A DNA stretch of 15,394 nt from a virus (lineage: Duplodnaviria; Heunggongvirae; Uroviricota; Caudoviricetes): the IMG/VR virus record IMGVR_UViG_2526164633_000052; one strand, given 5' to 3'. Positions 1 through 15,089 of the stretch are shown here, in pieces. The position numbers and the translations under genes were made by a program. Under the pieces are notes generated by a model. It did not search any database, was not told where the DNA came from, and saw only the letters and a program-made list of their open reading frames with translations. How positions within the stretch are numbered: the first letter of the stretch is position 1; each line of letters opens with the position of its first letter.

Positions 1-504
1 TTATTGATAGTGTTTTATGTTCAGATAATGCCCGATGACTTTGTCATGCAGCTCCACCGATTTTGAGAACGACAGCGACTTCCGTCCCAGCCGTGCCAGG
101 TGCTGCCTCAGATTCAGGTTATGCCGCTCAATTCGCTGCGTATATCGCTTGCTGATTACGTGCAGCTTTCCCTTCAGGCGGGATTCATACAGCGGCCAGC
201 CATCCGTCATCCATATCACCACGTCAAAGGGTGACAGCAGGCTCATAAGACGCCCCAGCGTCGCCATAGTGCGTTCACCGAATACGTGCGCAACAACCGT
301 CTTCCGGAGCCTGTCATACGCGTAAAACAGCCAGCGCTGGCGCGATTTAGCCCCGACATAGCCCCACTGTTCGTCCATTTCCGCGCAGACGATGACGTCA
401 CTGCCCGGCTGTATGCGCGAGGTTACCGACTGCGGCCTGAGTTTTTTAAGTGACGTAAAATCGTGTTGAGGCCAACGCCCATAATGCGGGCAGTTGCCCG
501 GCAT
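1..504 (-). CDS. insB: IS1 transposase InsB (B frame of the InsAB' frameshift transposase)
   Basis: 167-aa translation [16 protein letters not shown]...HYLNIKHYQ matches IS1 InsB as I remember it; overlaps insA in a different frame as in IS1. Confidence 0.85.
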
Positions 505-698
505 CCAACGCCATTCATGGCCATATCAATGATTTTCTGGTGCGTACCGGGTTGAGAAGCGGTGTAAGTGAACTGCAGTTGCCATGTTTTACGGCAGTGA
601 GAGCAGAGATAGCGCTGATGTCCGGCGATGCTTTTGCCGTTACGCACCACCCCGTCAGTAGCTGAACAGGAGGGACAGCTGATAGAAACAGAAGCCAC
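423..698 (-). CDS. insA: IS1 InsA (transposition inhibitor / N-terminal part of InsAB')
   Basis: 91-aa translation [23 protein letters not shown]...LKNSGRSR with zinc-finger CxxC...CxxC; canonical IS1 InsA size. Confidence 0.9.
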
Positions 699-753
699 TG
701 GAGCACCTCAAAAACACCATCATACACTAAATCAGTAAGTTGGCAGCATCACC

Positions 754-1367
754 TCGCGATTAATAGTATATGTAATCCTGGGGATAATAAAGATGCGACT
801 CCCATTGAACAATGTACTTTTGATGTAGAAACTAAGAATGGCCTTCCCTCCACGGTTCAGCTATTTTATGAGGAATCTAAGGATAATGAACCTTTAGCGA
901 ATATACATTTTCAAGCAATAGGTTCTGGTTTTTTAACGTTTGTTAATGCCTGCCAGGAACATGATGACAACAGCTTAAAATTATTTGCTTCGCTGTTAAT
1001 TTCACTTTCATATTCTAGTGCCTACGCAGATTTATCAGAAACAGTGTATATTAATGAAAATAATGAGAGCTACCTGAAAGCTCAGTTTGAAAAATTATCT
1101 CAACGTGATATGAAGAAGTACCTGGGAGAGATGAAGCGTCTGGCTGATGGGGGAGAAATGAATTTTGATGGCTATCTGGATAAGATGTCACATCTGGTGA
1201 ATGAAGGAACGCTCGATCCTGATATTTTAAGCAAAATGAGAGATGCTGCACCACAATTAATTAGCTTCGCGAAGTCGTTTGACCCAACCTCAAAGGAAGA
1301 GATTAAAATACTTACAGACACTTCTAAATTAATTTATGATTTGTTCGGGGTTAAATCGGAGAAATAA
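754..1367 (+). pseudogene. 3' remnant (about 204 codons) of an AT-rich ORF of unknown function, interrupted by the IS1 insertion
   Basis: Hand translation shows the frame of ORF 1044-1367 stays open without stops back to the IS1 junction at 754; strongly AT-rich by eye; no family recognised. Confidence 0.55.
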
Positions 1368-1404
1368 TATGTGAAGTTCTTCGATAGTATGGAAGGCATT
1401 ATAT

Positions 1405-1439
1405 AAAAGGACCCAATATTTATTGGGTTCTTTTTTCTC
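1405..1439 (+). terminator. Rho-independent terminator-like hairpin after the IS1-disrupted ORF
   Basis: Stem acccaat/attgggt (1411-1428) followed by tcttttttctc; A-run upstream makes it potentially bidirectional. Confidence 0.5.
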
Positions 1440-1954
1440 TATCAATGCTATTAGCAGGGAGATATATCACCAGAGTTTAATGTGTGATTTTTTATTTATC
1501 GTCGAACCTGGATTGTTTATCATTGGCCTTAACAAAGTTAACGGCTAATAAGATTATTTCCATCACTTCGTGAGAGCTTCATGCCTTGAGAGGATCTCAA
1601 TTTTCTTTTGCAATGAGACAGGCGCTTCCTGTTGTTATGGTATAGTACCCCGCTATTGAGCCTCCTGAATAGTGATGCTGAATAACATAACCCCATGATA
1701 TATCGATAAAATAATCTCTACATTTGAAAATGCACGGTAATTCTGAAATGCAAAAAATCAACCAAACCAGCGCAATGCCTGAAAAAACTGACGTTCACTG
1801 GAGTGGTCGGTTTAGCGTTGCACCAATGCTCGATAGGATGTACCGTTTTTGAAAAACAACTAGTTATACACTTTGTGGGAGCCTATTGGGAACCTGAAGT
1901 TTTGCTCTTTCTATTCATATCTATTCATAAAGCACCATTTGCTGCCTTATCTGA

Positions 1955-1983
1955 TTGACCAAAAACAACCGCGGTTATAGACT
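1955..1983 (+). promoter_or_regulatory. Candidate sigma70 promoter for the 2037-3027 cassette, followed by a short inverted repeat (ctaag...cttag, about 1997-2015) that could be an autoregulatory operator
   Basis: TTGACC, 17-bp spacer, TAGACT; GAGG ribosome-binding site 5 nt before ATG 2037. Confidence 0.3.
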
Positions 1984-2036
1984 TTGCTCCAAATAGCTAA
2001 GGCTATTGCTTAGTAAGTAAAACAGTTGAGGTTGCC

Positions 2037-2576
2037 ATGAATCCGTTTAACGCCATTACTTTTGCTGCATTGTGCGGGCCTCTGGCTTGTCCTGCTGCTA
2101 TGGCGCAGGAGTTCATCATCCAGCCAGCCCCTGTGATTGCTAAACCTTTTGAGTACTCTCCTTCTGTTGAGGAATTCTCACGCAAAATGGAAGAGGGTAA
2201 GGAGATCTTGCAAAAGTTAACAATTGCAGCAGATGACTACTATATCTGTTTGATTGATCTTAATAGCCAAGATGCTCGCGAGTTTGTTTCCAAAAACGGG
2301 ACAGATACGACAGAGGCATGCGAAATGTTCCTGCGTGCTTTTGAAGAAGAAGTGAAGCGTACAATTGAATCGCCTCTGCCTGAATTTATCAGGTCAGAAC
2401 TGAAGGTTTACTGGCGTCATATTGCTAAAGCTCGCTCATCTGTCACTCGCCTTAACAATTACATAAAGAGCATATTTAAAGAAACTGTTACTTTTAGCGG
2501 GCGCGCGGATCTTGCTGGAATTGCAGCACTAGCTAGTCACACATCAAATAAGCTAAAATCGATGCAATTTCACTAA
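2037..2576 (+). CDS. Hypothetical 179-aa protein, upstream partner of the YafO-like toxin (candidate non-canonical antitoxin); N-terminus hydrophobic and signal-peptide-like
   Basis: Good RBS (GAGG) before ATG 2037; 16-bp gap to downstream toxin ORF; no recognisable HTH/RHH or Phd/YefM features; alternative internal start at Met51 (2187). Confidence 0.5.
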   Translation: MNPFNAITFAALCGPLACPAAMAQEFIIQPAPVIAKPFEYSPSVEEFSRKMEEGKEILQKLTIAADDYYICLIDLNSQDAREFVSKNGTDTTEACEMFLRAFEEEVKRTIESPLPEFIRSELKVYWRHIAKARSSVTRLNNYIKSIFKETVTFSGRADLAGIAALASHTSNKLKSMQFH

Positions 2577-2592
2577 CCGATAGCGGACGACC

Positions 2593-3027
2593 ATGCATCT
2601 AGAAGTCTCTATTAATCCAGAAACTAGAGCTGAATTTTTTGATGAAGTTTTTCTCAAATTCCCGGAGCTAGAGTCTTCTATCATTGATGATTTCAAGAGA
2701 TACAAAGCAACCGGTGAGCTTCCGCATTATTTCGGTAGGGACGTTGCGTATACTCAGCCTTATGGTGCTTTTCGGGCTGGGTTGATGCATATCCATCTTT
2801 GTCTACCGCCAAACAAGTTTCCCGAGAAACTTCCACAACCGGATAGGGTCTGCAAGAAAGGTGATCCTGATAATGATGCTTGTCTTGTGTATGTCCAAGG
2901 TGAGCTTTATGAGAATAAATATTCACTCATTGCTATTATGTATCCCGATGCACATGAAAAAGCAAGAAAACATGATGTGATGAGCTATCTGGCGCGAATT
3001 GCCCAGAATTATAAAGATGAAAACTAA
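2593..3027 (+). CDS. YafO-family type II toxin (ribosome-dependent mRNA interferase family)
   Basis: By-eye alignment to E. coli YafO as recalled: YKxxGxLPxxFGRDxxY, HIHL, LVYxQG, LIAIxxPxxHxxAR motifs in the same order and spacing; 144 aa. Confidence 0.7.
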   Translation: MHLEVSINPETRAEFFDEVFLKFPELESSIIDDFKRYKATGELPHYFGRDVAYTQPYGAFRAGLMHIHLCLPPNKFPEKLPQPDRVCKKGDPDNDACLVYVQGELYENKYSLIAIMYPDAHEKARKHDVMSYLARIAQNYKDEN

Positions 3028-3048
3028 CCCGCCGAAGCGGGTTTTTTG
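3027..3048. terminator. Intrinsic terminator between the convergent toxin gene and the PrtN-like gene
   Basis: Stem acccgc/gcgggt with cgaa loop followed by tttttt on the plus strand; A/T-rich on the other side as well. Confidence 0.55.
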
Positions 3049-3053
3049 TGAGA

Positions 3054-3326
3054 TTAGTTATTTATTTTCCTATTTGTTCTTACCCTCTCCCATTCAATTC
3101 TGCCTTCTTCACGCCGTTTATCTATATATTCAGCAAGATCCTGAATGTTGATGCAGCGCTTTGCTTTCTGTGATGTACCAACACGATAAGTCGGGATCGG
3201 CAACTGGCATGCATTTGCTTTCGCTTCTGCTGTGTTAGGGCTCATACCGAAATACTTTTGGCATACAGCTGACAGCTCAATGTTTGGGGTATTGAATTCA
3301 GCCATCAGTAAAAACAAGGTGTTCAT
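3054..3326 (-). CDS. PrtN-family / excisionase-like small DNA-binding protein
   Basis: Translation from Met at 3326 (MNTLFLLMAEFNTPNIELSAVCQKYFG...) resembles the pyocin-activator PrtN family; GGAG RBS 6 nt upstream of that ATG; the ORF is open further upstream to GTG 3353. Confidence 0.65.
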   Translation of the reverse strand: MNTLFLLMAEFNTPNIELSAVCQKYFGMSPNTAEAKANACQLPIPTYRVGTSQKAKRCINIQDLAEYIDKRREEGRIEWERVRTNRKINN

Positions 3327-3362
3327 AATTTTCTCCATCAAAACCGGCTGCACCCGGGAAAA

Positions 3363-3935
3363 TCATAATTCTGTGCTGGTGGCAGGAATTAATTTCTGCC
3401 AGATAGCGGAAACATATTTTGCCTGATGACGGGCATCAGCCAGGGCGTTGTGCCGGTCGCCATCGAAAGGCATGTCCATTTTGGGGTCGAATCCGATGGA
3501 ACGCCCAAGCGTAACGATCGTGCGTACATCGTGGTCATTCCAGTACGCCCACGGGCAGATTTGTCCTGCTCGCTCGTAAGCTCCACGTAAAATTACGTTG
3601 TCGAAGGTGGCCCCGTTACCCCAGACTTTTAAATATTTCGTATTGTCTGCGTGCCGGTTAATGAAATGATTTAGTTCTGAGAGAGCATCGCTGATCGACA
3701 AAGTATCATCAATACAGATTGCAGCTCGTGCTTCAGGGCTTTGTTTCAACCACCACAGGATGGTATCGCCGTCAGGTGTAGCTCCTTGCCCCATAGCACT
3801 TTCCAGGCTAACAACCGTATAGAATTCTTGTCCGATGTCTCCGGTTTCTGGAGTGAAGAACACCGCGCCAATGGAAACGATCGGTGCATCCTTATTTTTC
3901 CCCATCGTCTCAAGGTCGATCATTAAGTTGTTCAT
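3363..3935 (-). CDS. DEDDh-type 3'-5' exonuclease (DnaQ-like fold)
   Basis: Motifs MIDLET (Exo I), WGNGATFDNV (Exo II), HNALADA (Exo III with His); AGGAGG RBS 7 nt before ATG 3935; the start overlaps the stop of the upstream gene. Confidence 0.8.
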   Translation of the reverse strand: MNNLMIDLETMGKNKDAPIVSIGAVFFTPETGDIGQEFYTVVSLESAMGQGATPDGDTILWWLKQSPEARAAICIDDTLSISDALSELNHFINRHADNTKYLKVWGNGATFDNVILRGAYERAGQICPWAYWNDHDVRTIVTLGRSIGFDPKMDMPFDGDRHNALADARHQAKYVSAIWQKLIPATSTEL

Positions 3936-4486
3936 CACTTCACCTCCTGCGGCGGTTCCGGTAGCGGCATCCAGTGAGTTGCTTGCTCAATACCATTACC
4001 CGGCTTAATCGTTGCATCTCCGCGCCGAAAGGTGCTTCCGGTATAGCGTGCGGAGCATATTAGCGGTTCAACCAGAGAGCTATCGAAATTCACCGAAATA
4101 AGCACGTTCTGGCCCTTTTCAGGCATTCGATCACTACAGATTATCCAACTATCCGGAGTTCCCGGAGAGTTGCCATTTACATCGAAGTTTGGCTCTGCGT
4201 CCTGAACCAGGAGGATGTAACCATTCTTGGCTGTATCAAGTTCTAACGCCTCGGTGACGGTGCCGAAATAGCGATTACCTAAATCAGCATCACAAGTGCT
4301 TACATCAATGGAAACTTCCATGCCTTCGATTAATTCTGGCAAGTTGTAAGTTTGGCTTATAGGCTCTGCTTCCAGCGATGCCAGTGCAATTTCATAAGCA
4401 CGGCGCTCAATATTGTCTCGAACGTCCAGGCCGCCTATGCGCTCTTTGATTTCTTTAATCAGTTCTTTGTCGGTAAAAGTGGTCAT
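3935..4486 (-). CDS. DUF551-domain phage protein
   Basis: C-terminal WIICSDRMPEKGQNVL...HWMPLPEPP is the typical DUF551 signature; translationally coupled (ATGA overlaps) to both neighbours. Confidence 0.7.
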   Translation of the reverse strand: MTTFTDKELIKEIKERIGGLDVRDNIERRAYEIALASLEAEPISQTYNLPELIEGMEVSIDVSTCDADLGNRYFGTVTEALELDTAKNGYILLVQDAEPNFDVNGNSPGTPDSWIICSDRMPEKGQNVLISVNFDSSLVEPLICSARYTGSTFRRGDATIKPGNGIEQATHWMPLPEPPQEVK

Positions 4487-4848
4487 GCTGTAGCCCCTTC
4501 TTGATATTTTTCAAACCAGAACACAACCGGGTCAGATTTCATTTCAACCAATCCCATACGAACCAGCGCCTTGCCTTTCCCGGACGCAAGGAATTCACGA
4601 CGACCATCACTGATAATTCGCCGATAATCTTCCAGGCTACTGCAATGCTTGTGCAGATTGCATGGGTGGCATGCCGGAACCATGTTGGATATATCGTCAC
4701 GTTCCTGGTGAAGCATATTTCCAGCAAAACGAATGACCGGTTTTACATGGTCTGCATGCCACTTTTCGCCAAGTTCGCAGCCGCAATAAGCGCAGCGACC
4801 ACCGAACTTCATGCGCAGTTCTGCACGTTGTTTTTTCGTCAGTGCCAT
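4483..4848 (-). CDS. HNH endonuclease
   Basis: CAYCGCEL...WHADHVKP...VPACHPCNLHK: two Cys pairs plus the H-N-H core; start taken at ATG 4848 (MALTKK...) rather than the ORF-track upstream Met. Confidence 0.75.
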   Translation of the reverse strand: MALTKKQRAELRMKFGGRCAYCGCELGEKWHADHVKPVIRFAGNMLHQERDDISNMVPACHPCNLHKHCSSLEDYRRIISDGRREFLASGKGKALVRMGLVEMKSDPVVFWFEKYQEGATA

Positions 4849-4849
4849 A

Positions 4850-5068
4850 TCAGCTTTCCTTATATGGATTAATTTTATTGTGCAGTGTGTTGAACGACGC
4901 CCATACCACGTCGTTATACAATTCAATAACTGGCTCAATTATTTTCCCGATTGCCCATACCAGAATTAACGGGGATATCGGTATCATCAACACGATAAAC
5001 AGAATGAGAAACAAAAATTCTGTCGCTCTACTTCTTCGCGGATATTCTTTTCTGAATAATGTCGGCAT
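4850..5068 (-). CDS. Small single-pass membrane protein (72 aa)
   Basis: GGAGAG RBS 4-5 nt before ATG 5068; one clear transmembrane segment FLFLILFIVLMIPISPLILVWAIG. Confidence 0.45.
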   Translation of the reverse strand: MPTLFRKEYPRRSRATEFLFLILFIVLMIPISPLILVWAIGKIIEPVIELYNDVVWASFNTLHNKINPYKES

Positions 5069-5069
5069 A

Positions 5070-5261
5070 TCACTCTCCTTTAGTGCGCAAGTGGTTTTCC
5101 CAGCGGTTTTGCGCCGCGCTGGGCTTATCTTTGACTCCCTCTCTGGCAATTCCAGAATATAAGTACAACACCACACGGCGATTGCTAACTCTCAACCACT
5201 GGCAGGGATAGCAACGTCTGTATACACGGGAAATAAGCATCTTTGCTTTACGGTTTTTCAT
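5070..5261 (-). CDS. Small basic protein (63 aa), paralog of the next ORF
   Basis: Starts MKNRKAK; its ATG overlaps the stop of the upstream paralog; shares N-terminus and a diverged KP(S/T)A(A/S)QNR segment with ORF 5258-5434. Confidence 0.4.
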   Translation of the reverse strand: MKNRKAKMLISRVYRRCYPCQWLRVSNRRVVLYLYSGIAREGVKDKPSAAQNRWENHLRTKGE

Positions 5262-5434
5262 CTTACTGCGTACCCTTTCTTTCGCCTGTTCTGTGACGCT
5301 GTAGGCTTACGCTTTGCGGCAAAAGCCACCTGACCAAATGGATGGAGTACTGCTATCTTATGGTTGCTGATAACCAGCTCCACCACACGCACAGGTCGCT
5401 GTAAAAAAAGTCGTTTTGCTTTACGGTTTTTCAT
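5258..5434 (-). CDS. Small basic protein (58 aa, below the ORF-track cutoff), paralog of 5070-5261
   Basis: Hand translation MKNRKAKRLFLQRPVRVVELVISNHKIAVLHPFGQVAFAAKRKPTASQNRRKKGYAVR; AGGAG RBS 9 nt upstream; the first 20 nt are identical to the start of the downstream paralog. Confidence 0.35.
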   Translation of the reverse strand: MKNRKAKRLFLQRPVRVVELVISNHKIAVLHPFGQVAFAAKRKPTASQNRRKKGYAVR

Positions 5435-5606
5435 CGTTTTGCTCTCCTGCGTTTCTTTGCTGCACGTCGTGCAGCTGCAATACCGGTATGGCGGTGCTTT
5501 GGTGCCGGGATGATGTTGTCAGCCATCAGGACATGTGGCTTTGCAATTAGCGCAGAAGCCCAAAAACGAGTCGGGTACGGTAACAAGTCGATACATGCCA
5601 CACGCA

Positions 5607-6236
5607 TTACTCACCTTCTTTGATGCGAATGCCAGCGGCGCGTGGCACATTAACTTCCACGATGCGCACAGTTGGTTTGTACATCTCAATCGCTGTCAGC
5701 CAGTCAGCGCCGGTCATATGCTTTTCTGCATCGCCATTAGTCCATTGAACCGGCACACCAATAGCTTTCATCGCAATTTCTATTTCCCCGGCAATGGCGC
5801 TTTTCCCGCAACCAGTAAAACCAGAGACAACGACAAGAACTTCGCCTTTGGCTGGTTTTATTTCCCGTGCTTCCAGTTCTGCTATGCGCTTCTCTGCGGC
5901 TTCCAGCTTGGCTTCTGCATCTTTGGCTCGCATCTGCCAGTTGATAGCGATGTCGATAACGCTGTTAGCACAACTGGACTCGTTCTCTTCGGCAGCTTTA
6001 GCTTCAGAAAGCTCATCAAGCAATCCAAGAACAACAGTTGGCGTGGCGAGCGTGATAAAACGCATATTGCTCATATGCTCTTCATCGCTGACCTCATCTC
6101 CAGCCTCGACCGCTGCCATGTGCTGAACATAGCCGCTATCACAGGTATTCCAGATTGCCCCTGCCTCGTAACCCCATTCACCATGTAGTGCTTTTTCTGC
6201 CGCCTCACGCAGTGCCTGGTAATTAATTTCGCTCAC
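5607..6236 (-). CDS. Coiled-coil early protein, probably an Ea22-like mosaic-family member (from memory, unverified)
   Basis: GTG start with AGGAGG RBS; N-terminus SEINYQALREAAEKA and central KRIAELE coiled coil; overlaps the stop of the upstream gene. Confidence 0.6.
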   Translation of the reverse strand: MSEINYQALREAAEKALHGEWGYEAGAIWNTCDSGYVQHMAAVEAGDEVSDEEHMSNMRFITLATPTVVLGLLDELSEAKAAEENESSCANSVIDIAINWQMRAKDAEAKLEAAEKRIAELEAREIKPAKGEVLVVVSGFTGCGKSAIAGEIEIAMKAIGVPVQWTNGDAEKHMTGADWLTAIEMYKPTVRIVEVNVPRAAGIRIKEGE

Positions 6237-6913
6237 TGACAGCCTCCTTTGCGAAGCTCTGCAGCGAAATATACAGCTGCGGAAACAATAGCTGCATGTC
6301 GGTATTCACCATCAGAAAAGAGAGAATCTCCCTTAAGTGCATTGACGATACTCTGATGATTTTTTGCCAGCATCTCCACACCCTGCGCCCGTACTTCAGC
6401 CAGGAAAGCATCTGTAGCCGGGGTTTGCGGCATACCTCCGTCTGTTGCGCAGATATACGCATCAGATAGTTCATCCTGCTCGCCATCAAACACGTAGCAA
6501 CTCTGTGCGATAAATTTATTTAGCCCCGCATTCTCCGCCGCCAGCGCCGCGCAATTACCCTCCAGCTCTGCAATGCGCTGTTTTGCAGCATCAAGTTCAA
6601 TCGATAATTTTTCCAACTGCTCTTTATGCTTCTTGTATTCCTGATATGCGTGCCAGGACTGACCTTTGCGCACACTATCAGTAATATCAGTAATCTGTTC
6701 TGGTGTTAGCGTGGTCAGTGGCTGTGCTGGGAAAATCAGCACTTTCCCGGAATCCCAATCAAAACCAGCGTGAATTGACTGAACCTCAACTGAGGGTGTT
6801 GAACCAATGCTGCCAGGCGAATGAACAACGATCGTTACATCCATATCGCGACGATGGCTGTGGTTGTTGGACAAAATACGATTCACCAACTCAGAAAATT
6901 TGGAGAATTTCAT
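6233..6913 (-). CDS. Mosaic coiled-coil phage protein; C-terminal half paralogous to ORF 7329-7907
   Basis: Start taken at ATG 6913 (GAGG RBS 6 nt upstream); contains the 134-bp segment that is repeated in 7594-7727. Confidence 0.6.
   Translation of the reverse strand: MKFSKFSELVNRILSNNHSHRRDMDVTIVVHSPGSIGSTPSVEVQSIHAGFDWDSGKVLIFPAQPLTTLTPEQITDITDSVRKGQSWHAYQEYKKHKEQLEKLSIELDAAKQRIAELEGNCAALAAENAGLNKFIAQSCYVFDGEQDELSDAYICATDGGMPQTPATDAFLAEVRAQGVEMLAKNHQSIVNALKGDSLFSDGEYRHAAIVSAAVYFAAELRKGGCQ
6420..6553. repeat. Copy A of an approximately 134-bp near-identical direct repeat (copy B at 7594-7727)
   Basis: Direct comparison of the two stretches: only a handful of mismatches over about 134 bp; both copies are inside coding sequence and encode ...CAALAAENAGLNKFIAQSCYVFDGEQDELSDAYICA... 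Confidence 0.8.
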
Positions 6914-6921
6914 GCGGAGCC

Positions 6922-7332
6922 TCAATATGCAAAATAGACCGTTGCCACGCCGTTATAGTGATCAAACGATACGGCGTTTACTTCATAGCTGGCAGGGAGC
7001 TTCGAGCCGAGAACATATCCGGGCCACGTTTTCCATGGAATTTCTCTACTCTCACTACCCCCATATACCGTACATCCAAGTGAACCTACAGCCTCGTCAG
7101 AACGTTTGCCGCATGTTATGAAACCTATATTTTTCTTGCTGGTCTTAATGGCGATTGGGTGAACACTGGCTGATGCATTGGCAGCACGCTGTGACTGTTG
7201 GTTTGCGATATTCGCAGAGTTCGCAGCAGCTACAGCAGCCATGGTCGCGGCGGTAGATGCCACAATAACTGCTGAAGCCTGCGCCTGTTGGGTAATGGTC
7301 AGCAATGCCGCCACAAAAATCATCTTCTTCAC
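6922..7332 (-). CDS. Secreted or periplasmic protein with N-terminal signal peptide (136 aa), function unknown
   Basis: GTG start with GGAG RBS 7 nt upstream; MKKMIFVAALLTITQQAQA has the n/h/c regions and an AxA cleavage motif of a Sec signal peptide; Ala/Ser/Asn-rich mature N-terminus. Confidence 0.6.
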   Translation of the reverse strand: MKKMIFVAALLTITQQAQASAVIVASTAATMAAVAAANSANIANQQSQRAANASASVHPIAIKTSKKNIGFITCGKRSDEAVGSLGCTVYGGSESREIPWKTWPGYVLGSKLPASYEVNAVSFDHYNGVATVYFAY

Positions 7333-7907
7333 TTGTCAGCTCCTTTGCGAATCTGTTCCGCCCATTCTTCAAGGGATTTCTCCGCATATTCACCGGACAG
7401 GCCATCAATCGGGTGCGGTTCATTAGCCAACTCTTCTTTCGCTGACAGAATCATGCGCGTAACGTCGAAAACTTCACGTAAAGACTTATTGATAAATCCG
7501 TGGTTGAAAGCAGCAGCAAGACGGCTTGCGGTATAGTTAATCCCCTCGTTGCGAGCCGCCGCACGAATTTCAGCCAAAAAAGCATCGGTGGCTGGGGTTT
7601 GCGGCATCTTTCCGTCTATTGCGCAGATATACGCATCAGATAGCTCATCCTGCTCGCCATCAAACACGTAGCAACTCTGTGCGATAAATTTATTTAGCCC
7701 CGCATTCTCCGCCGCCAGCGCCGCGCACTTGGCCTCAAGGTTATCAATCGTGATTCCAGCAGAACGGCACTCCCGCAACGCCGTTTCTAGTTTTGATTCA
7801 AGTTCACCGAACTTACGCACCAGGTATTCAGCATCCGTTTCATTCACTTTCAGATCTCGCGGTACACATTTCCCGAGAAGAAACCATTCCATTTCGAAAA
7901 CATTCAT
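7329..7907 (-). CDS. Hypothetical coiled-coil phage protein; shares a module with ORF 6233-6913
   Basis: ATG 7907 overlaps the stop of the YfdR-like gene (ATGA); contains repeat copy B. Confidence 0.6.
   Translation of the reverse strand: MNVFEMEWFLLGKCVPRDLKVNETDAEYLVRKFGELESKLETALRECRSAGITIDNLEAKCAALAAENAGLNKFIAQSCYVFDGEQDELSDAYICAIDGKMPQTPATDAFLAEIRAAARNEGINYTASRLAAAFNHGFINKSLREVFDVTRMILSAKEELANEPHPIDGLSGEYAEKSLEEWAEQIRKGADK
7594..7727. repeat. Copy B of the approximately 134-bp direct repeat
   Basis: See copy A; same orientation, 1174 bp apart. Confidence 0.8.
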
Positions 7908-8440
7908 GCGCATTTGCGTAACTCCGATAACTCGTTAAAACGTTCCATAAACATCCCGTAGGCATGGCCTGGTGACAGTGGAATAACTTTGAACATCTCT
8001 GTTGCTGGGATGCCTTCCAGTACAGGCCAGAAAGAGCCATCATCAAGCCCGAGATCGCGGCGTTCGGTTGCCAGCATAATGAGATCGGCATATTTCACTG
8101 GCGTGCTCATAACAGGAGGTAACCCGTATTTCTCACGGATTACGGCGTCTATTTTTTCTTCCATCCGTTTATAGTCAGGAAGAAGGCGTTTCAGTGGCGC
8201 GGGAATGTCCTGGCAATACGCTTCTGTTGCATCATGCATTAACGCTTCAAAAGCAAATTCCTGCGGTACCAGCTGGCTGCAAAGCACCGCATGTTGGGCG
8301 ACGCTGTAGAAGTGTGAAAGATGTCCTGCAAAGCGACAGATATTTGAAAGGGAAACCGCGATATCGTTAATAACGATGTCATCTTTATTTATCTTGTCAT
8401 AATAAAAATGTTTCCCGGAAAAAGTTTTAATAAATGACAT
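7904..8440 (-). CDS. yfdR: HD-domain phosphohydrolase, YfdR-like (5'-deoxynucleotidase family)
   Basis: 178 aa from ATG 8440 (GGAG RBS 7 nt upstream); HD-type motifs (HxxxV...HDAxE...D); size and gene order match the yfdP-yfdQ-yfdR cluster of E. coli CPS-53 as I recall it. Confidence 0.75.
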   Translation of the reverse strand: MSFIKTFSGKHFYYDKINKDDIVINDIAVSLSNICRFAGHLSHFYSVAQHAVLCSQLVPQEFAFEALMHDATEAYCQDIPAPLKRLLPDYKRMEEKIDAVIREKYGLPPVMSTPVKYADLIMLATERRDLGLDDGSFWPVLEGIPATEMFKVIPLSPGHAYGMFMERFNELSELRKCA

Positions 8441-8568
8441 TTCGTTCTCCACTTTATATGCGCTGCACCGCGTTGAATTCTGCTAAAAGGAAGCTCTCAC
8501 CATCCGGTGATTATTGAGTTAATTACGTTTCCATAAATGCCCCCGCAGGGGCATTAGCAGTAATGAAA

Positions 8569-9393
8569 TCAGGCGGTGAAAGTACCAATAAAGGTTTCTA
8601 CTTTGCTGTCTTTGAATTTCTCAACAAGCAGATCACGAAATTCGTTAGCCATTTCTTCCTGCACTGCTTCCAGCTGAATAATGCGCAGAACCAGTACAGG
8701 ACGATCGCCAGTGATAATGCTGAGGCGTAATTTAAACGGACGTTCTTTCAGACCTTCAAACGGAACGCATTTAAATTCAAATGCCACTGGCATAATATCT
8801 TTGGTCTTCGCTTCGACAGACTCCATCAGGGAGCGTTTTCCGCTGAAGTCATTATCTTCAAAATCAGCGGTCTGGTTTGCTTCAATCGTGATTTTACGGA
8901 CAGCCGCAGCCGCTTTTGTTGCCTGAATAGCGTCACCATTAGCATCAAAGCCCACAAGGTAGTCGGCCCAGTCTTCAATCCATTCTGCCAGTGACTTCTG
9001 GGAGTTACGCTCGCCATTAACAGACAACAGAGCAGAAAACGGTGCTGTCTTTTTTAGTTTGAGAGTGGCGGTGTTATCTGCGTGACCTGGTTCATCAATA
9101 GTACCCAGGTTAAGCACACTGACGGCGCGCATATTATCGGCATCGATAAAGCAGCGGGTGCCTTCATCTGCAAGATCTTTAGAATAACGGGTAAAGTCAT
9201 CGATGCTGGCAGTGGAAAGCGCACCACGGAAACGGAAGCGATTTAAATTAAATTTTTCCAGATCATGAATGCGGAAATTCTCAGGCAATGCCACAGCATC
9301 GGCACCAATCTTACTGATAATTTCATTAACACCCTGAGCAGAAATAAGGGCATGGATTTGATTAATTGCGGTTGCGTCTAAGTTCTGAGACAT
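8569..9393 (-). CDS. yfdQ: YfdQ-like DUF2303-family phage protein (274 aa)
   Basis: Length and position (between YfdP-like and YfdR-like genes) match YfdQ; GAGGA RBS upstream of ATG 9393. Confidence 0.7.
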
Positions 9394-9458
9394 AATAAGT
9401 CCTCACTATATAAAGATATTCAGTGATGAGATAAATAATCAGTTAATTAAGAACGATA

Positions 9459-9821
9459 TTAATGACCTGCTGCGCGGAGTTTTCCGTCAGGTTCACCGGC
9501 AAGAGTCAGTAATTGTCCCTGGTCTTCCTGCAGAATAGTCAGGCGACCACCGCGATTGACATACATCGGCGTTTCGGTGGTGTCTTCTTCGGAAATTTTC
9601 CCGCGGTTAGTTGGGCGAACATATGAGAGTTTGTGTTTGATTTTCACACGGTTCTCATCAAACGGTTCGATTTCCAGATTGAGTGAGACCTTCCCTTTGG
9701 TTTTCGTGTTCATCACACCGGAAGCGACTTCACTGAGAACTGCGCCGATTTTGGTTTCAAATACGCCGCCGTCCAGCTCCCCGATAAATGCCTGCACATC
9801 AGTACTGCGTTCGCTAGCCAT
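9459..9821 (-). CDS. YfdP-like small phage protein (120 aa); first gene of the leftward early operon
   Basis: Start set at ATG 9821 (MASERSTDVQ...) with GAGGAG RBS 7 nt upstream; the ORF-track extension to 10007 is Cys/Arg-rich and contains RNA hairpins, so it is unlikely to be coding. Confidence 0.6.
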   Translation of the reverse strand: MASERSTDVQAFIGELDGGVFETKIGAVLSEVASGVMNTKTKGKVSLNLEIEPFDENRVKIKHKLSYVRPTNRGKISEEDTTETPMYVNRGGRLTILQEDQGQLLTLAGEPDGKLRAAGH

Positions 9822-9956
9822 TTTGCTGCTCCTCATCATATCGACCCTGCAAGGTCGGTTGGTTTCTCCACAAAACAGAGAAGAACACCTGCGGTGGCAG
9901 CCGCCCGGATGGATTGGGTTATGAGCCCGTCGTCCGGTGATGCTCTTCTCTGTTTT

Positions 9957-10004
9957 GTAAAAAGAGCGGTACCAGCCGGAAGCAAGTGTACAAACTGGTA
10001 CCGC
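9957..10004 (-). terminator. Intrinsic terminator-like hairpin in the leftward (pL) leader
   Basis: Perfect 10-bp stem gcggtaccag/ctggtaccgc (9966-9975 and 9995-10004) with 19-nt loop, followed on the minus strand by TCTTTTT. Confidence 0.5.
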
Positions 10005-10435
10005 CAAAGCAGTGGCTGTTGTGGTGACCGGTGCTGATCTCCGGCTTGCGGTTATTTCAGACTCTCACGGGCGTTTAATTGCCCCGCCGAACAGCTCTTT
10101 TCCGCATTAGCTGCAATGTCTTTCGCGCATCAGCCTGCGCATTCACCACAACGCTGAGAGCACTTAGCCAGTTACGGCACCACACTTTGTCGCGGTTCCA
10201 TAAATGCCCTCATCGTTGCACCCTGGTCTCTTCCCAGGTGTCAAACCGAACCGCCACGCTGGTTAGGCGTCTTATCAGCATCATCATTGACTTGCACATT
10301 CCGGCTACCTGGTTTGTTTGCCCGAGCAAGGAGTGGATTGTCCCCTTTAACGTCCCCAGACCGCTAACGACGCATGTGCCATACGCCGTGTTACAACCAA
10401 ATTTTGTTTAATCTTGCCTGTGACATGTTTCTTTT

Positions 10436-10470
10436 AGATACATTATGTATCTCAAGGGTACATTGTCAAG
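10436..10470 (-). promoter_or_regulatory. Candidate pL promoter with overlapping operator palindrome
   Basis: On the minus strand: TTGACA (plus 10464-10469), 16-bp spacer, CATAAT (plus 10442-10447); perfect 17-bp palindrome agatacattatgtatct (10436-10452) overlaps the -10. Confidence 0.45.
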
Positions 10471-10496
10471 TATAAAAAAACCTGCCGAAGCAGGTT
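10471..10496 (-). terminator. Rho-independent terminator of the repressor gene
   Basis: Stem aacctgc/gcaggtt with cgaa loop (10479-10496); on the minus strand it is followed by a run of 7-8 T. Confidence 0.6.
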
Positions 10497-10507
10497 ATAA
10501 ATATTGA

Positions 10508-11182
10508 TTAGGCCTTTATTTTGTATCTTCTTGGTTTTCCTGAGAAAATTACTGTACCAATTATAGAGCAATTACCGTTGATCTTAATGTAAGGTTCAGG
10601 CCAGTTTGGGTTTAATGCTTTGAGGTAACGCTGTGTTCCATCTTCTATCAACCGCTTAAAGGTGGTTTCGCCTGTATCGTGCATCAATGCAATAACGTCG
10701 TCACCGTGGCAGGCAGGGACTTCAGGATCTACAAAAATCATGTCTCCCGGGCGGTACTCATCAATCATTGAATCACCAATCACCCGCAAGATATAAGTCA
10801 TTTCGCCACAGGGTACAGGGCAGGGATAAGTTTCTGCTGTGCTCAAATCAACCTCAGAATAGCCAACTTCTTTCCATGCTCCGGCCTGTACCCATGATAT
10901 GACAGGGACTAACGTTATTTGTTTGTTAGTAATTGAAACATCAGGTTTTTTTGTGATGTTTGTTGTCTGGTGTTCTTGATCAAGCCATCCGACAGGCAGG
11001 TCGAAACATTTTTCGATGTGCCGTGCCATGCTGTCACCGATATTTTTAGTAGCACCATCTCCCATAAACCTGCTGGTCTGGGTTGGCTCGCGATCAATCA
11101 TGGTGGCAAAGGAAGAATTCCCGCCAACACCATCTCTCAGTTTTCTGGCGTTAGACCGCCGGATGTCATGGACTGTTTTCAT
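10508..11182 (-). CDS. CI-like prophage repressor with C-terminal S24 (LexA-like) autopeptidase domain
   Basis: C-terminal VIGDSM...FKRL motifs (Ser/Lys dyad) typical of LexA/CI autocleavage domains; divergent from a Cro-like gene across an operator-containing intergenic region. Confidence 0.85.
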   Translation of the reverse strand: MKTVHDIRRSNARKLRDGVGGNSSFATMIDREPTQTSRFMGDGATKNIGDSMARHIEKCFDLPVGWLDQEHQTTNITKKPDVSITNKQITLVPVISWVQAGAWKEVGYSEVDLSTAETYPCPVPCGEMTYILRVIGDSMIDEYRPGDMIFVDPEVPACHGDDVIALMHDTGETTFKRLIEDGTQRYLKALNPNWPEPYIKINGNCSIIGTVIFSGKPRRYKIKA

Positions 11183-11198
11183 AACGAAATTAAAACCT

Positions 11199-11250
11199 TT
11201 GTACCGATAGGGTACAAGTATCTTGAAGGTTCATCTCAATCATGTAATAT
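11199..11250 (+). promoter_or_regulatory. OR/pR region: operator palindrome plus candidate rightward promoter
   Basis: Palindrome ttgtaccgatagggtacaa (11199-11217); TTGAAG (11223-11228), 16-bp spacer, TAATAT (11245-11250); GGAGG RBS at 11258-11262 before ATG 11273. Confidence 0.45.
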
Positions 11251-11272
11251 GTATATCGGAGGTACATATTGT

Positions 11273-11473
11273 ATGAAAGCGTATTGGGACTCTTTAACCA
11301 AAGAACAGCAGGGCGAGTTGGCCGGAAAAGTTGGCTCAACACCAGGCTACTTACGGCTGGTTTTCAATGGTTATAAAAAAGCCAGTTTTGTGCTGGCTAA
11401 AAAACTTGAGCAATGCACGTCAGGTGCAATTACGAAATATGACTTAAGACCGGATATCTATCCGAAAGATTAA
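11273..11473 (+). CDS. Cro-like (Cro/YdaS-type) small HTH regulator, 66 aa
   Basis: Position immediately right of the repressor and OR; HTH-like segment ELAGKVGSTPGYLRLVFNG; the ORF-track N-terminal extension overlaps the repressor gene and is rejected. Confidence 0.7.
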   Translation: MKAYWDSLTKEQQGELAGKVGSTPGYLRLVFNGYKKASFVLAKKLEQCTSGAITKYDLRPDIYPKD

Positions 11474-11504
11474 CAGAACACCTTCAATTTTTAACCACAG
11501 AACG

Positions 11505-12068
11505 ATGAGGCTAACCGTGGGTAAGCATCACTGGAAAGTAGAAAAACAGCCTGAGTGGTACGTGAAAGCTGTCAGAAAAACTATCGCGGCGTTGCCGGGG
11601 GGTTACGCTGAAGCTGCTGAGTGGCTGGATGTAACAGAGAACGCTTTATTCAACCGCCTTCGTGCAGATGGCGATCAGATTTTCCCGCTGGGATGGGCAA
11701 TGATTTTACAGCGCGCGGCTGGCACTCACTACATTGCGGATGCTGTCGCACAGTCTGCTGGTGGGGTGTTTGTATCGCTTCCTGAAATTGAGGAAGTAGA
11801 GAACGCCGATATAAACCAGCGCCTGCTGGAAGTCATCGAACAGATCGGGAGTTACTCAAAGCAGATTCGTTCGGCAATCGAAGATGGGGTAGTGGAGCCA
11901 CACGAGCAGACAGCAATTAATGATGAGTTGTATCTGTCAATTTCGAAGCTCCAGGAGCATGCAGCACTGGTCTACAAAATCTTTTGCGCTCCAGAAAAGA
12001 GTGACGCCCGCGAGTGTGCAGCTCCGGGCGTCGTGGCGTTTTGTGTCTGTGGAGAAACTAACGCATGA
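11505..12068 (+). CDS. CII-like / YdaT-like regulatory protein (assignment tentative)
   Basis: Second gene of the rightward operon, where CII or YdaT sits in lambdoid phages; HTH-like segment GYAEAAEWLDVTENALFNRLR; alternative GTG start at 11517 has a better RBS. Confidence 0.5.
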   Translation: MRLTVGKHHWKVEKQPEWYVKAVRKTIAALPGGYAEAAEWLDVTENALFNRLRADGDQIFPLGWAMILQRAAGTHYIADAVAQSAGGVFVSLPEIEEVENADINQRLLEVIEQIGSYSKQIRSAIEDGVVEPHEQTAINDELYLSISKLQEHAALVYKIFCAPEKSDARECAAPGVVAFCVCGETNA

Positions 12069-12901
12069 ACAGTTTAACGGCAAATAACCGTTTGTCGCAA
12101 CAGCTGGTGGTCAGCGTCGCTGAACACCTGTTGTTACGGCATGAATGCAGATTACCAAATCACCTGGCTGTAAGTAACCACAGAGAACTTTACCTGACTG
12201 TGGGGGGCGAGTTGTGCAGGAACTTAACCGCTGGTTTCGTGACGGAAGAGGACTTTATGTTCATGTTATTCGTTGGGAGCCAGAAACACAGCGCGTTATC
12301 TATCTTCGCAAAGACTACCCGCATGAGTGCTTTAGTCCTTTGTGGAAATTCAGGCGTGATTTTGTTGAGTGTGAAGGACCACCAGCACATTGATTCTGCC
12401 ATTCCGGGACGTTACACTGTTCAGGCACCTTATAAAGCGGGTGCCGGGATTGGCGTCCTGGAATTGATCAAGGCGATATATGACGCGCCAGCGTCTTTTT
12501 TATCGTCCGCATTTGCTCACATCAAAGTTATGGTGGGCTGGGCGGGGGCATCGAAAGATGCGCCGGTTTCCTTGATCACCGGTTACGCCAACCCCGTTCA
12601 GTTCACCACCAGCGAAATTGGCGTTTCCGGTGGTGGAAGTATTTCACCGATCAAGGAGGCTGCCATCATGGCTACTGTCCCAGCCCTCACTCGTCTGAAT
12701 GATGAAGACTTACATAAACTCAGTTATGTAACAACTGCACTACGTGCTCTGCGCAAGGTAACTCTTTCGGATCCCCAGGCGCATCAGGTTTTGGTAGAAA
12801 CCCTTCTTAACTTGCAGGCTGAACGTATTCGTCTGGCGGATAAGGCTAATTTTCATATTCACCGTCTCCTGAATATCAGCGGAGGGCATCGTCATGCTTA
12901 A
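12065..12901 (+). CDS. Hypothetical protein (278-aa ORF); gene structure uncertain
   Basis: Long open frame translationally coupled to both neighbours (ATGA at 12065; downstream ATG 12894 overlaps its end); no family recognised; 12178-12402 is open in three frames. Confidence 0.4.
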   Translation: MNSLTANNRLSQQLVVSVAEHLLLRHECRLPNHLAVSNHRELYLTVGGELCRNLTAGFVTEEDFMFMLFVGSQKHSALSIFAKTTRMSALVLCGNSGVILLSVKDHQHIDSAIPGRYTVQAPYKAGAGIGVLELIKAIYDAPASFLSSAFAHIKVMVGWAGASKDAPVSLITGYANPVQFTTSEIGVSGGGSISPIKEAAIMATVPALTRLNDEDLHKLSYVTTALRALRKVTLSDPQAHQVLVETLLNLQAERIRLADKANFHIHRLLNISGGHRHA

Positions 12902-13130
12902 TCCGTTGAGCCTCAATATTCGCCGTTTACTTCAGCGTAAAAAAACATCAATTCCTACAGTTGGGCAGTGGTACACCACGCCTGCAGGGCATGTTCTACG
13001 TGTTAGCCTGGTTGACCGTGAATGCCAGAAGGTGATTTGTGAACCGCTGGGCCGTAATTACCGCGTCAGTATGCCGCTTATAGCCTTTCGCTCCGGAAAA
13101 AACATGAAGCATCTCGGAGGTGCAGCATGA
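12894..13130 (+). CDS. Hypothetical small protein (78 aa)
   Basis: Strong GGAGG RBS 8 nt before ATG 12894; stop overlaps the start of the O-like gene (ATGA). Confidence 0.45.
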   Translation: MLNPLSLNIRRLLQRKKTSIPTVGQWYTTPAGHVLRVSLVDRECQKVICEPLGRNYRVSMPLIAFRSGKNMKHLGGAA

Positions 13131-13945
13131 GTATGGAGCTGATGGTTAAAGCGATGAAAATTCGAGTGGGTAATCCATTGCGAAAACTGGTTCTGATCAA
13201 GCTGGCTGATAATGCCAGCGATCAGGGTGAGTGCTGGCCCAGCTATCAGCATATCGCTGATCAGTGCGAGATTAGCAAACGTTCTGTGATGAATCATATT
13301 GCGGCCCTCTGTGAGTCCGGGCTGGTAAAAAAAGTCACCCGGAAAGGTGAAAAAGGTAACTCAAGTAATATCTATCTCCTTCATCTGGATGGTGCAGGAG
13401 ATTCACTAGGGGGTAGTGCAAATAATTCACTATCTGGTGCAGCAAATTCACCAGGTAGTGCAGGAGTTGCACCAGGGGGTAGTGCAGGAGATTCACCCAG
13501 AACCAGTCACTCTTTTGAACCAGTCAAAGAACCAGTCAATGAACCAATAGCTGTTGGTGCATCAGTTGATGAGTCCGTGCGAGTTCGTTCAAACCGACCG
13601 GAATACTCTCCGGAGTTTGAGCAGGCATGGCTGGCATATCCCAAACGTGCTGGTGGCAATTCAAAATCTGCAGCCTTCAAAGCCTGGAAAGCCCGTTTGA
13701 ACGAGGGGGTAAACCCCGAAACCATGCTGGAAGGTGTGAAACGCTACGCGGGCTGGGTATCTGCGATGGGTAACAGCGGCACACAATTTGTGAAACAGGC
13801 TGTCACGTTCTTTGGTCCGGATCGTCATTTCGAAGAATCCTGGGAAGTTCCTGCGATATCTGCAGCCAGACGCGAGGACCCGTACTTCAAAGCCAGTTAC
13901 GACAACGTGGACTACAGCCAGATCCCGGCAGGATTCAGGGGGTGA
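13127..13945 (+). CDS. Phage replication initiator (lambda O-like architecture): N-terminal winged-HTH domain, low-complexity linker, C-terminal domain
   Basis: N-terminus LRKLVLIKLADNASDQGECWPSYQHIADQCEISKRSVMNHIAAL resembles HTH-type phage replication proteins; iteron-like DNA repeats lie within the Gly/Ser/Ala-rich linker. Confidence 0.7.
   Translation: MSMELMVKAMKIRVGNPLRKLVLIKLADNASDQGECWPSYQHIADQCEISKRSVMNHIAALCESGLVKKVTRKGEKGNSSNIYLLHLDGAGDSLGGSANNSLSGAANSPGSAGVAPGGSAGDSPRTSHSFEPVKEPVNEPIAVGASVDESVRVRSNRPEYSPEFEQAWLAYPKRAGGNSKSAAFKAWKARLNEGVNPETMLEGVKRYAGWVSAMGNSGTQFVKQAVTFFGPDRHFEESWEVPAISAARREDPYFKASYDNVDYSQIPAGFRG
13391..13550. repeat. Iteron-like tandem repeats (candidate replication origin) inside the O-like gene
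   Basis: About five tandem 21-24-bp units sharing attcac...ggtagtgcagga (13391-13500), then three or four copies of gaaccagtca at 11-16-bp spacing (13501-13550). Confidence 0.55.
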
Positions 13946-14436
13946 TCATGAGTCTTTTGAATGAAGTTCAGAAATTCATTGAAGCCCATCCGGGGTGTAC
14001 TTCCGGAGACATTGCGGATGCTTTTGCAGGTTACTCACGGCAGCGCGTTCTGCAGTCAGCAAGCAAGTTACGTCAGAGTGGGCGTGTGGCTCACCGTTGT
14101 GAAGGAGATACACGCAGACATTTCCCACGCCTGACTGAGAGAGCGCAGGAGCCGGAACTACAACCAGTTCGTGAAACCAGACCTGTGCGCAATTTCTATG
14201 TCGGCACTAACGATCCCCGGGTGATTTTGTGCCTGACCCGCCAGGCGGAAGAACTGGAGTCCAGGGGCCTATACCGTCGTGCTGCAACGGTGTGGATGGC
14301 GGCATTCCGTGAAAGCCACTCCCAGCCAGAACGAAACAATTTTCTGGCGCGTCGTGAGCAGTGTTTACGGAAAAGCAGCAAGCGCGCTGTATCGGGTGAT
14401 GAGTGGTATCTGTCAGGGAATTACGTGGGGGCTTAA
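13942..14436 (+). CDS. PerC/ANR-like transcriptional regulator with N-terminal winged-helix-like region
   Basis: C-terminal LESRGLYRRAATVWMAAF...FLARREQCLRK resembles the PerC-family signature as I recall it. Confidence 0.5.
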   Translation: MIMSLLNEVQKFIEAHPGCTSGDIADAFAGYSRQRVLQSASKLRQSGRVAHRCEGDTRRHFPRLTERAQEPELQPVRETRPVRNFYVGTNDPRVILCLTRQAEELESRGLYRRAATVWMAAFRESHSQPERNNFLARREQCLRKSSKRAVSGDEWYLSGNYVGA

Positions 14437-15089
14437 TGAGTAATAAATATTGCCAGGAGCTGGTGGAACTGCGGAACAAACCAGCCCATGAACTGAAGGA
14501 AGTGGGTGATCAGTGGCGCACGCCGGACAACATTTTCTGGGGAATTAACACCCTGTTTGGCCCGTTTGTTCTGGATCTGTTCACTGACGGTGATAACGCC
14601 AAATGTGCCGCGTATTACACGGCGGAAGACAACGCGCTGGCGCATGACTGGTCAGAACGCCTTGTGGAGCTTAAAGGTGCTGCCTTTGGTAATCCTCCAT
14701 ACAGCCGCGCCAGTCAGCATGAGGGGCAATACATCACCGGCATGCGTTACATCATGAAACATGCCAGTGCCATGCGTGATAAGGGCGGGCGCTATGTTTT
14801 CCTGATCAAAGCTGCCACCAGCGAAGTGTGGTGGCCGGAAGATGCGGACCATATTGCTTTTATTCGCGGGCGTATTGGTTTTGAACTGCCTGCCTGGTTT
14901 ATCCCGAAGGATGAGAAGCAGGTGCCGACAGGCGCTTTCTTCGCTGGTGCTATTGCTGTTTTTGACAAGACCTGGAAGGGACCGGCAATCAGCTACATCG
15001 GGCGCGATGAACTTGAGGCATGTGGTGAGGCCTTTCTGGCGCAGGTTCGCCAGCAGGCAGAAAAACTGGTCAGGGAGATGGTGGCATGA
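14436..15089 (+). CDS. Phage-type DNA N6-adenine methyltransferase (Dam-like, orphan)
   Basis: Catalytic NPPY motif (AFGNPPYS) and overall size; start set at ATG 14436 overlapping the upstream stop rather than the ORF-track Met at 14403. Confidence 0.7.
   Translation: MSNKYCQELVELRNKPAHELKEVGDQWRTPDNIFWGINTLFGPFVLDLFTDGDNAKCAAYYTAEDNALAHDWSERLVELKGAAFGNPPYSRASQHEGQYITGMRYIMKHASAMRDKGGRYVFLIKAATSEVWWPEDADHIAFIRGRIGFELPAWFIPKDEKQVPTGAFFAGAIAVFDKTWKGPAISYIGRDELEACGEAFLAQVRQQAEKLVREMVA

Follow-up and report, generated by a model that had tools for sequence, protein, structure and literature searches.

An IS1-truncated remnant of the chromosomal DUF2713 gene (yjbL/yjbM) beside a prophage in dusA of Escherichia coli

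We analyzed a stretch of 15,394 nucleotides from a viral record (IMGVR_UViG_2526164633_000052), hereafter called the window. The analysis centers on an open reading frame at positions 754 to 1367, which lies directly next to an IS1 element and to the left of a prophage. The following features occur in this part of the window.

1-753, minus strand: IS1, complete except for the outermost 15 nt of the right inverted repeat, cut off by the start of the window
1-504, minus strand: insB, 167 aa; Pfam DDE_Tnp_IS1, 261 bits
423-698, minus strand: insA, 91 aa; Pfam Zn_ribbon_InsA and HTH_Tnp_IS1
731-753, minus strand: left terminal inverted repeat of IS1 (minus strand: GGTGATGCTGCCAACTTACTGAT); it meets yjbM at its last base, 753
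754-762, no strand: predicted target site of IS1, TCGCGATTA; its repeat is expected beyond IS1, outside the window, judging from the duplications of 11 other copies
754-1367, plus strand: 3' remnant of the DUF2713 gene (K-12 yjbM); Pfam match; aligned with the intact proteins P0010 and P0002; nucleotide sequence 100% identical to the locus of O103:H2 12009, ECC-1470 and FDAARGOS_1059
1405-1434, plus strand: intrinsic terminator of yjbM with a 13-bp stem, a 4-nt loop and a T-run; terminator scan and RNA fold
1730-1834, plus strand: first 35 codons of dusA, displaced; aligned to a locus without the prophage, and annotated in FDAARGOS_1059

The element at the left edge belongs to the IS1 family, since the InsA and InsB' frames and a terminal inverted repeat are all present; E. 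coli genomes contain matching copies under the annotation IS1 family transposase. The right inverted repeat is covered only in part, because the window begins 15 nt within it. The left inverted repeat, read directly from the sequence, ends in ...GGCAGCATCACC with its final base at 753, and the same terminus also borders the full 768-bp IS1 copies of the comparison loci described below. Transcription of insA and insB is directed away from the yjbM remnant.

The initial annotation of this DNA had described the frame ending at 1367 as open all the way back to the IS1 end at 753 and as the rest of a longer gene cut by IS1. Both statements hold. The frame from 756 to 1367 consists of 203 sense codons and a stop (1365-1367) without any internal stop, and it runs 29 codons further into IS1, up to a TGA at 663-665. 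The remnant matches the Pfam family DUF2713 (PF10897), a profile of 235 positions, from position 33 to the end (235) with 467.3 bits, compared with a cut-off of 27; the E-value of 1.3e-140 rules out a chance ORF. The first 32 positions of the profile are missing. Alignment shows that the remnant corresponds to residues 126-328 of the intact 328-aa protein P0010 and to residues 33-235 of YjbM. The IS1 junction is located at nucleotide 373 of the gene, within codon 125. What is left of the 328-aa ancestral ORF is the last 2 nt of this codon, codons 126-328 and the stop; being truncated at codon 125 of 328, it is not a complete translatable ORF. Neither ATG nor GTG nor TTG occurs in frame between 666 and 1043. 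The first start candidate is a GTG at 1044, and the remnant is without a start codon for 96 codons. The longer gene would have been called into question if homologs never coded upstream of 1044; the intact homologs, which have 328-340 aa, are coding throughout this region. Because an in-frame start is absent from 666-1043 and because insA and insB lie on the opposite strand, there is no evident route for expression of the remnant. Positions 754-1367 contain no Rfam family and no repeats, and the minus-strand ORFs in this interval are short and without any match.

The other two features noted at first sight, a high AT content and a clean terminator, were also corroborated. The prophage part has a GC content of 48.1%, while 754-1367 has 36.6%. 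The predicted terminator, a hairpin followed by a T-run, begins 38 nt past the yjbM stop; it folds with -15.2 kcal/mol (z = -4.9), and none of 200 shuffled sequences folded as well.

Of the 5426 complete E. coli genomes searched with 754-1500 by megablast, 3927 contain this DNA, in the presence or absence of a prophage, and 1963 records are at least 99% identical. In every annotated copy that we read, including those of O103:H2 12009, ECC-1470, FDAARGOS_1059 and K-12, the DUF2713 gene is located between zur and dusA. The annotation of K-12 MG1655 divides the region into two genes, yjbL (b4047, 84 aa) and yjbM (b4048, 235 aa, 'DUF2713 domain-containing protein YjbM'). The K-12 pair and the remnant represent the same gene at what is most likely the same zur-dusA locus, with the same terminator and the same downstream intergenic region. 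They differ in their lesions: K-12 has only a frameshift, caused by a run of seven instead of eight A's (A7 instead of A8), whereas the window has lost, by removal or displacement through IS1, all that precedes codon 125 of the ancestral ORF. In O103:H2 12009 the 3' part of the gene is 100% identical to the remnant, and the gene in its full length has ~99% nucleotide identity to the K-12-type copies. Downstream of the remnant the window itself contains the identical intergenic DNA and the 5' fragment of dusA; for the upstream side we infer yjbL and zur as neighbors from the 100% match to FDAARGOS_1059 over 14.6 kb.

The border between the chromosome and the prophage can be read from an alignment with the prophage-free locus of O103:H2 12009. 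The two sequences are identical up to position 1833 and unrelated beyond it. In FDAARGOS_1059 the 105 nt of the dusA fragment (1730-1834) are annotated as an incomplete tRNA-dihydrouridine synthase. The alignment places the attachment-site junction after base 1833, inside dusA, as the point at which the prophage starts. Elements that integrate in the 5' end of dusA are known to provide a new 5' end for the gene, while the old 5' end stays behind as a remnant (PMC4482086). The window resembles these prophages and islands (PMC4482086) in that the displaced 35-codon fragment of dusA at 1730-1834 is directly followed by lambdoid prophage DNA; it differs in that the element does not include the DUF2713 gene and that the integrase gene is not in the window.

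Several observations were made on the prophage itself, which is lambdoid and inserted in the 5' end of dusA. Its first genes encode a 179-aa ORF, a YafO-like protein, a PrtN-family protein and, on the minus strand, the early-left operon. No integrase gene was found at the dusA-fragment end of the prophage within the window; presumably the integrase is encoded at the far end, beside the rebuilt dusA. The YafO-family toxin gene at the attachment-site end (2593-3027, plus strand) matches Pfam YafO_toxin with E = 2e-21, and its NCBIfam match is below the cut-off. The 179-aa ORF just upstream of it (2037-2576, plus strand) has a signal-peptide-like N-terminus and no family match. From its sequence, the pair at 2037-3027 resembles a toxin-antitoxin type of accessory module in which the partner of the toxin has not been recognised. 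Two adjacent Rfam RNAs are located at 12425-12613 on the plus strand, both above their gathering thresholds: the isrK Hfq-binding RNA (12425-12501, 64 bits) and the C4 antisense RNA (12526-12613, 82 bits). The best matches among phage records are PhiR40_1 and PhiR55_1, with 59% of the query covered.

The location of the DUF2713 gene bears on its origin. The initial annotation had regarded the gene as horizontally acquired cargo. Its stop codon lies 466 bp to the left of the prophage junction at 1833, and the gene is also present in the prophage-free loci of O103:H2 12009, ECC-1470 and K-12; because it is outside the boundary and occurs in genomes without the prophage, it is not prophage cargo (a 'moron'). 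The low GC content is a property of a small islet between zur and dusA and not of the phage: yjbLM has 34.3% GC and the upstream intergenic region 36.3%, compared with 52.9% for zur and 53.2% for dusA. A region of 526 bp between zur and yjbL is one of the 78 promoter islands of K-12; it is listed as tied to predicted foreign genes and as H-NS-bound in all ChIP studies compared (PMC3661553, Table 1). The similarity with these H-NS-bound islands (PMC3661553) is direct in so far as zur/yjbL itself is in the K-12 list and the islet has 34-36% GC between flanks of ~53%; on the other hand, the listing covers the upstream region beyond the window, and the H-NS status is a report on K-12. The yjbL-yjbM operon has also been assigned to a young phylostratum, with unknown function (PMC12218254). 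An ancient foreign origin of the DUF2713 gene is likely, in line with the predicted foreign genes of PMC3661553, and this part of the earlier proposal can stand, while an assignment to the prophage cannot.

Next we consider the intact protein. The full-length form is a single protein. Examples include P0010 with 328 aa, which stands for a cluster of 2579 sequences, P0094 with 330 aa and P0078 with 340 aa. A phmmer search against 1.84 billion representatives returned only 51 proteins, which were mostly fragments. The remote homologs are few, come from gut metagenomes and have 21-26% identity in the alignment; in two of the contigs (L030 and L031) the remote homolog is downstream of a 171-aa gene, which has the same length as Zur. 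By these searches the family is nearly confined to Escherichia. Intact alleles have a dN/dS of 0.35-0.6; in the same genomes the value is ~0-0.05 for zur and dusA. The common alleles differ from each other by a synonymous divergence of 0.13, and from the allele of strain M172-1 by 0.63-0.70; for zur/dusA it is 0.06-0.09. Given a dN/dS of 0.35-0.6, the intact DUF2713 gene is a real but weakly constrained and fast-evolving coding gene.

The M172-1 allele (L019, 2421-3425) occupies the same zur-dusA slot. It has ~50% protein identity to the other alleles, and only an alignable part of it reaches ~77% nucleotide identity. This type of allele is found in about 225 genomes. The flanking zur and dusA genes of M172-1 are nearly identical to those of other strains. 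The comparison shows deep allelic divergence or replacement at one locus.

The initial annotation had further suggested that IS1 may have inactivated a costly accessory or defence gene; in its full form, the proposal would be that of a functional gene acquired horizontally as cargo of the adjacent prophage. An AT-rich gene with its own terminator and an adjoining prophage would fit this proposal, and the same is true for the repeated IS hits in the gene and for its fast evolution with deep allelic divergence. The database searches, however, speak against it. Neither P0010 nor the M172-1 allele had a match in PADLOC-DB at E <= 0.1, the NCBIfam search of the intact protein found nothing, and a profile search of the PDB sequences gave a best E-value of only 0.097. 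An AlphaFold2 model built from close homologs only had a pLDDT of 41.8 and was unusable. When the remote homologs were included, pLDDT rose to 59.8 with a pTM of 0.51; the model is largely helical with a short beta-hairpin and is confident only at the C-terminal helices. The best Foldseek hit of the PDB (E 0.17, TM ~0.16-0.2) is meaningless. No literature was found on 'DUF2713'; the E. coli literature lists yjbL/yjbM merely as unknown, and a search for 'yjbM' is dominated by the Bacillus subtilis YjbM and a journal with the same abbreviation. A defence gene was hence rejected on the grounds that PADLOC, NCBIfam, PDB sequences and folds all gave no match.

A further argument against inactivation by IS1 comes from the relatives of the window. 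Two complete genomes, FDAARGOS_1059 and O111:H2 12A, match 754-15394 in one piece at ~100%; FDAARGOS_1059 has 2 mismatches to the window in 6147 nt compared. Neither genome has an IS1 at the position found in the window. In O103:H2 12009, ECC-1470 and FDAARGOS_1059, which make up all the relatives read with 100% identity to the window over the remnant, RefSeq annotates the gene as a frameshifted pseudogene. The state of the A-run in the closest relatives was taken from FDAARGOS_1059 alone of the two 14.6-kb matches. Its lesion is A7 instead of A8 in ...GCACGTAAAAAAATGTG..., as in K-12, and one added A results in a single 328-aa ORF. The general context of the run is ...CATGCACGT(A)nTGTG..., with eight A's in the in-frame alleles, and it is located ~130 nt upstream of the IS1 site. 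Of the loci read, 19 have A7 and 6 have A8; A7 always leads to a stop within 94 codons or earlier, while A8 is in frame there. A7 is found on at least 3 allele backgrounds: with a 30-bp N-terminal repeat, without it, and in an allele of 95.7% identity.

The A-run can be inspected in O103:H2 12009 (L001, 3860-3880), and the same site occurs in L003 and L004; with its recurrence on several backgrounds, it may be a slippage hot spot. From the sequence, a -1 shift at the run would likewise restore the long frame. A different frameshift is present in E. coli SE11 (L012, ~9700-9712): here the A8 run is in frame, but the protein reads ...DRAIISRL... where intact alleles have ...DRAIFHFA.... This lesion is in a T-rich stretch near the IS1 position of the window, which is probably a coincidence.

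The A-run of the source strain lies beyond IS1. We infer from the relatives that this strain most likely had a K-12-like split into yjbL and yjbM (A7) before IS1 arrived. Because the closest relative examined is already A7-frameshifted, the IS1 is best seen as a second hit on an existing pseudogene; it was probably not the inactivating event that the initial annotation had taken it for. IS1 would still be the primary cause of inactivation if the source strain had A8, or if the 235-aa YjbM made from an A7 allele were functional and had been destroyed by IS1. Such a view gains from the annotation of K-12 yjbM as a gene of 235 aa in its own right, the length at which Pfam has modelled DUF2713, and from intact proteins that are near-identical to the remnant, namely P0010 and P0002 (the latter an A8 protein of 338 aa with one residue different from the remnant). 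A dN/dS below 1 also indicates some constraint on the intact alleles. Against this stand the A7 run of FDAARGOS_1059, which is identical over 14.6 kb, the RefSeq call of the A7 form as a frameshifted pseudogene, and the fact that no obvious Shine-Dalgarno sequence is seen by eye before the yjbM ATG. Primary inactivation by IS1 thus seems unlikely, even though it is the most serious competitor of a second hit on a gene that was already split.

IS1 has repeatedly and independently inserted at this locus. In 26 complete genomes an IS1 end in the same orientation is present within ~700 bp of this part of the gene. Both ends of the element were mapped for 11 loci, comprising 10 of the 26 genomes and one from a protein look-up. 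The 11 insertions are at 11 distinct gene coordinates (-256, -191, -155, -34, 21, 176, 205, 351, 394, 450 and 585), which span an AT-rich stretch of ~850 bp; position 373 of the window is a twelfth one. Except for one of 757 bp, these IS1 copies have a length of 768 bp, and all 11 have a direct duplication of 8-9 bp. The insertion in TUM1881 is just 22 bp upstream of the site in the window. The IS1-bearing strains (TUM1881, X14-3, T16R, R18 and GCA_977064715.1 among them) share with the window the element, its orientation and the AT-rich target, and their own insertions are simple, with 8-9-bp duplications; they differ in that each has its IS1 at its own nucleotide, and an insertion at 373 is absent from the 5426 complete genomes. 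Other forms of damage also occur. A DDE_Tnp_1-family transposase is inserted in the same gene in GCA_900449145.1 (locus L006). The 107-aa sub-ORF, which a gene caller would predict in the remnant, was found in 957 blocks of a contig collection that comprise many differently decayed loci, with the locus of the window not among them; these 957 records suggest many kinds of decay.

In YZ22PE244 (L026, 1641-2627) the IS1 is at gene coordinate 21 and RefSeq retains a 328-aa 'DUF2713 family protein' with its start inside the IS1 terminus. Judged from its sequence, this ORF would be a fusion of the IS1 end to the gene.

IS1 favors AT-rich target DNA. Four of the 11 sites (-256 to -34) are in the non-coding AT-rich leader, which argues for a target preference rather than for selection on the coding sequence. 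The recurrent landing of IS1 agrees better with such a preference than with selection acting against the gene. For ~14 IS1 copies in each genome, a target of 1.25 kb and a single orientation, a rough estimate, which ignores clonality and should be read with caution, gives ~9 of 5426 genomes expected by chance versus 26 observed. Insertions in non-coding DNA upstream of the gene are also at odds with the proposal of a costly prophage-borne accessory or defence gene. Considering in addition the position of the gene 466 bp outside the boundary, at the same locus in prophage-free genomes, the frameshift of the closest relative examined and the searches without matches in PADLOC, NCBIfam, PDB sequences and Foldseek, we regard this proposal as very improbable.

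A related view is that DUF2713 could be a contingency-type accessory gene, fast-evolving and with an upstream region reported as H-NS-bound; A7/A8 slippage might toggle its expression, and IS insertions might repeatedly remove it because it is costly or a target in a conflict, for example with phage or the host. The IS1 of the window would then be another case of selected loss. The dN/dS of 0.35-0.6, the high synonymous divergence, the 50%-identity allele, A7 on at least 3 backgrounds and at least 12 IS1 sites are compatible with it. The same observations are equally expected under neutral decay of a weakly constrained AT-rich orphan gene, and we give the contingency view only a slim chance.

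The remaining doubts concern the junction itself. An exact search with the 35-nt junction gave 0 matches in GTDB genome contigs (species representatives) and 0 in metagenome contigs, and megablast of 600-1000 against the 5426 complete E. coli genomes gave no single-piece match to a junction at position 373. In FDAARGOS_1059 the uninterrupted target site reads ...TTTTTCATT/TCGCGATTAATA. The far side of IS1 is predicted to be that of a simple insertion because all 11 comparison copies are simple insertions; most likely it reads ...CATT TCGCGATTA followed by IS1. A simple insertion would show ...TTTTTCATTTCGCGATTA joined to GGTAATGACTCC..., and the predicted far junction, with a 9-bp duplication, would be ...GGGCTATTTTTCATTTCGCGATTA/GGTAATGACTCCAAC....

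Alternatively, a deletion or inversion mediated by IS1, or a recombination event involving two copies of it, could have produced the junction; the gene's 5' part, possibly together with zur, would then be absent or elsewhere. The window does not include the far flank of IS1, and the exact junction has no counterpart in the collections searched, as such a rearrangement would allow; but neighboring sequence is intact at all 11 mapped IS1 copies, each a simple insertion with an 8-9-bp duplication, and zur is a conserved core gene, which is present in every locus examined. We consider a rearrangement improbable. Even less credible, to the point of being nearly negligible, is an artefact of assembly, by which a collapsed IS1 repeat was joined to the wrong flank. 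It is true that the window starts within IS1, as short-read contigs often do, and that its junction is unique among the collections searched. However, the join coincides exactly with the last base of the inverted repeat, where a chimera would rarely fall, and finished genomes commonly have a genuine IS1 in the same stretch.

Ends of IS1 can create hybrid promoters upon insertion. At 740-769 on the plus strand, weak promoter-like matches (TTGGCA at 740, a spacing of 16-18 nt, then AATAGT or TAGTAT) bridge the left end of IS1 and the first bases of the remnant; they are matches to the consensus only. The insertion may possibly have formed a hybrid outward promoter in this way, which would send a non-coding transcript into the remnant with no evident consequence.

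Taken together, these results favor the following reading, to which we assign a probability of about 0.8: positions 754-1367 are the 3' two-thirds of the chromosomal yjbL/yjbM (DUF2713) gene, which was cut by IS1 after it had, most likely, already been split by the A7 frameshift, with IS1 as a neutral second hit. In this sequence of events a contraction of the poly-A run from A8 to A7 would first have divided the ORF into yjbL and yjbM. IS1 would then have transposed into the DUF2713 gene at nucleotide 373, in codon 125, as a second and presumably neutral event on a decaying AT-rich gene. This would have cut the remnant off from the promoter and the ribosome-binding site as well as from the start codon and the first 125 codons. 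It would be a dead fragment, which has kept only its own terminator and most likely does nothing.

The finding thus concerns a known, uncharacterised E. coli gene in one more decayed state, and it is a case of ordinary gene decay. The appropriate label for the fragment is that of a DUF2713 pseudogene of the chromosomal backbone interrupted by IS1, and the boundary of the prophage belongs at the dusA fragment, at base 1833, and not further to the left. With its slippery poly-A run, unusually deep allelic divergence and repeated IS1 insertions, the zur-dusA islet is a handy small example of how an AT-rich orphan gene erodes.
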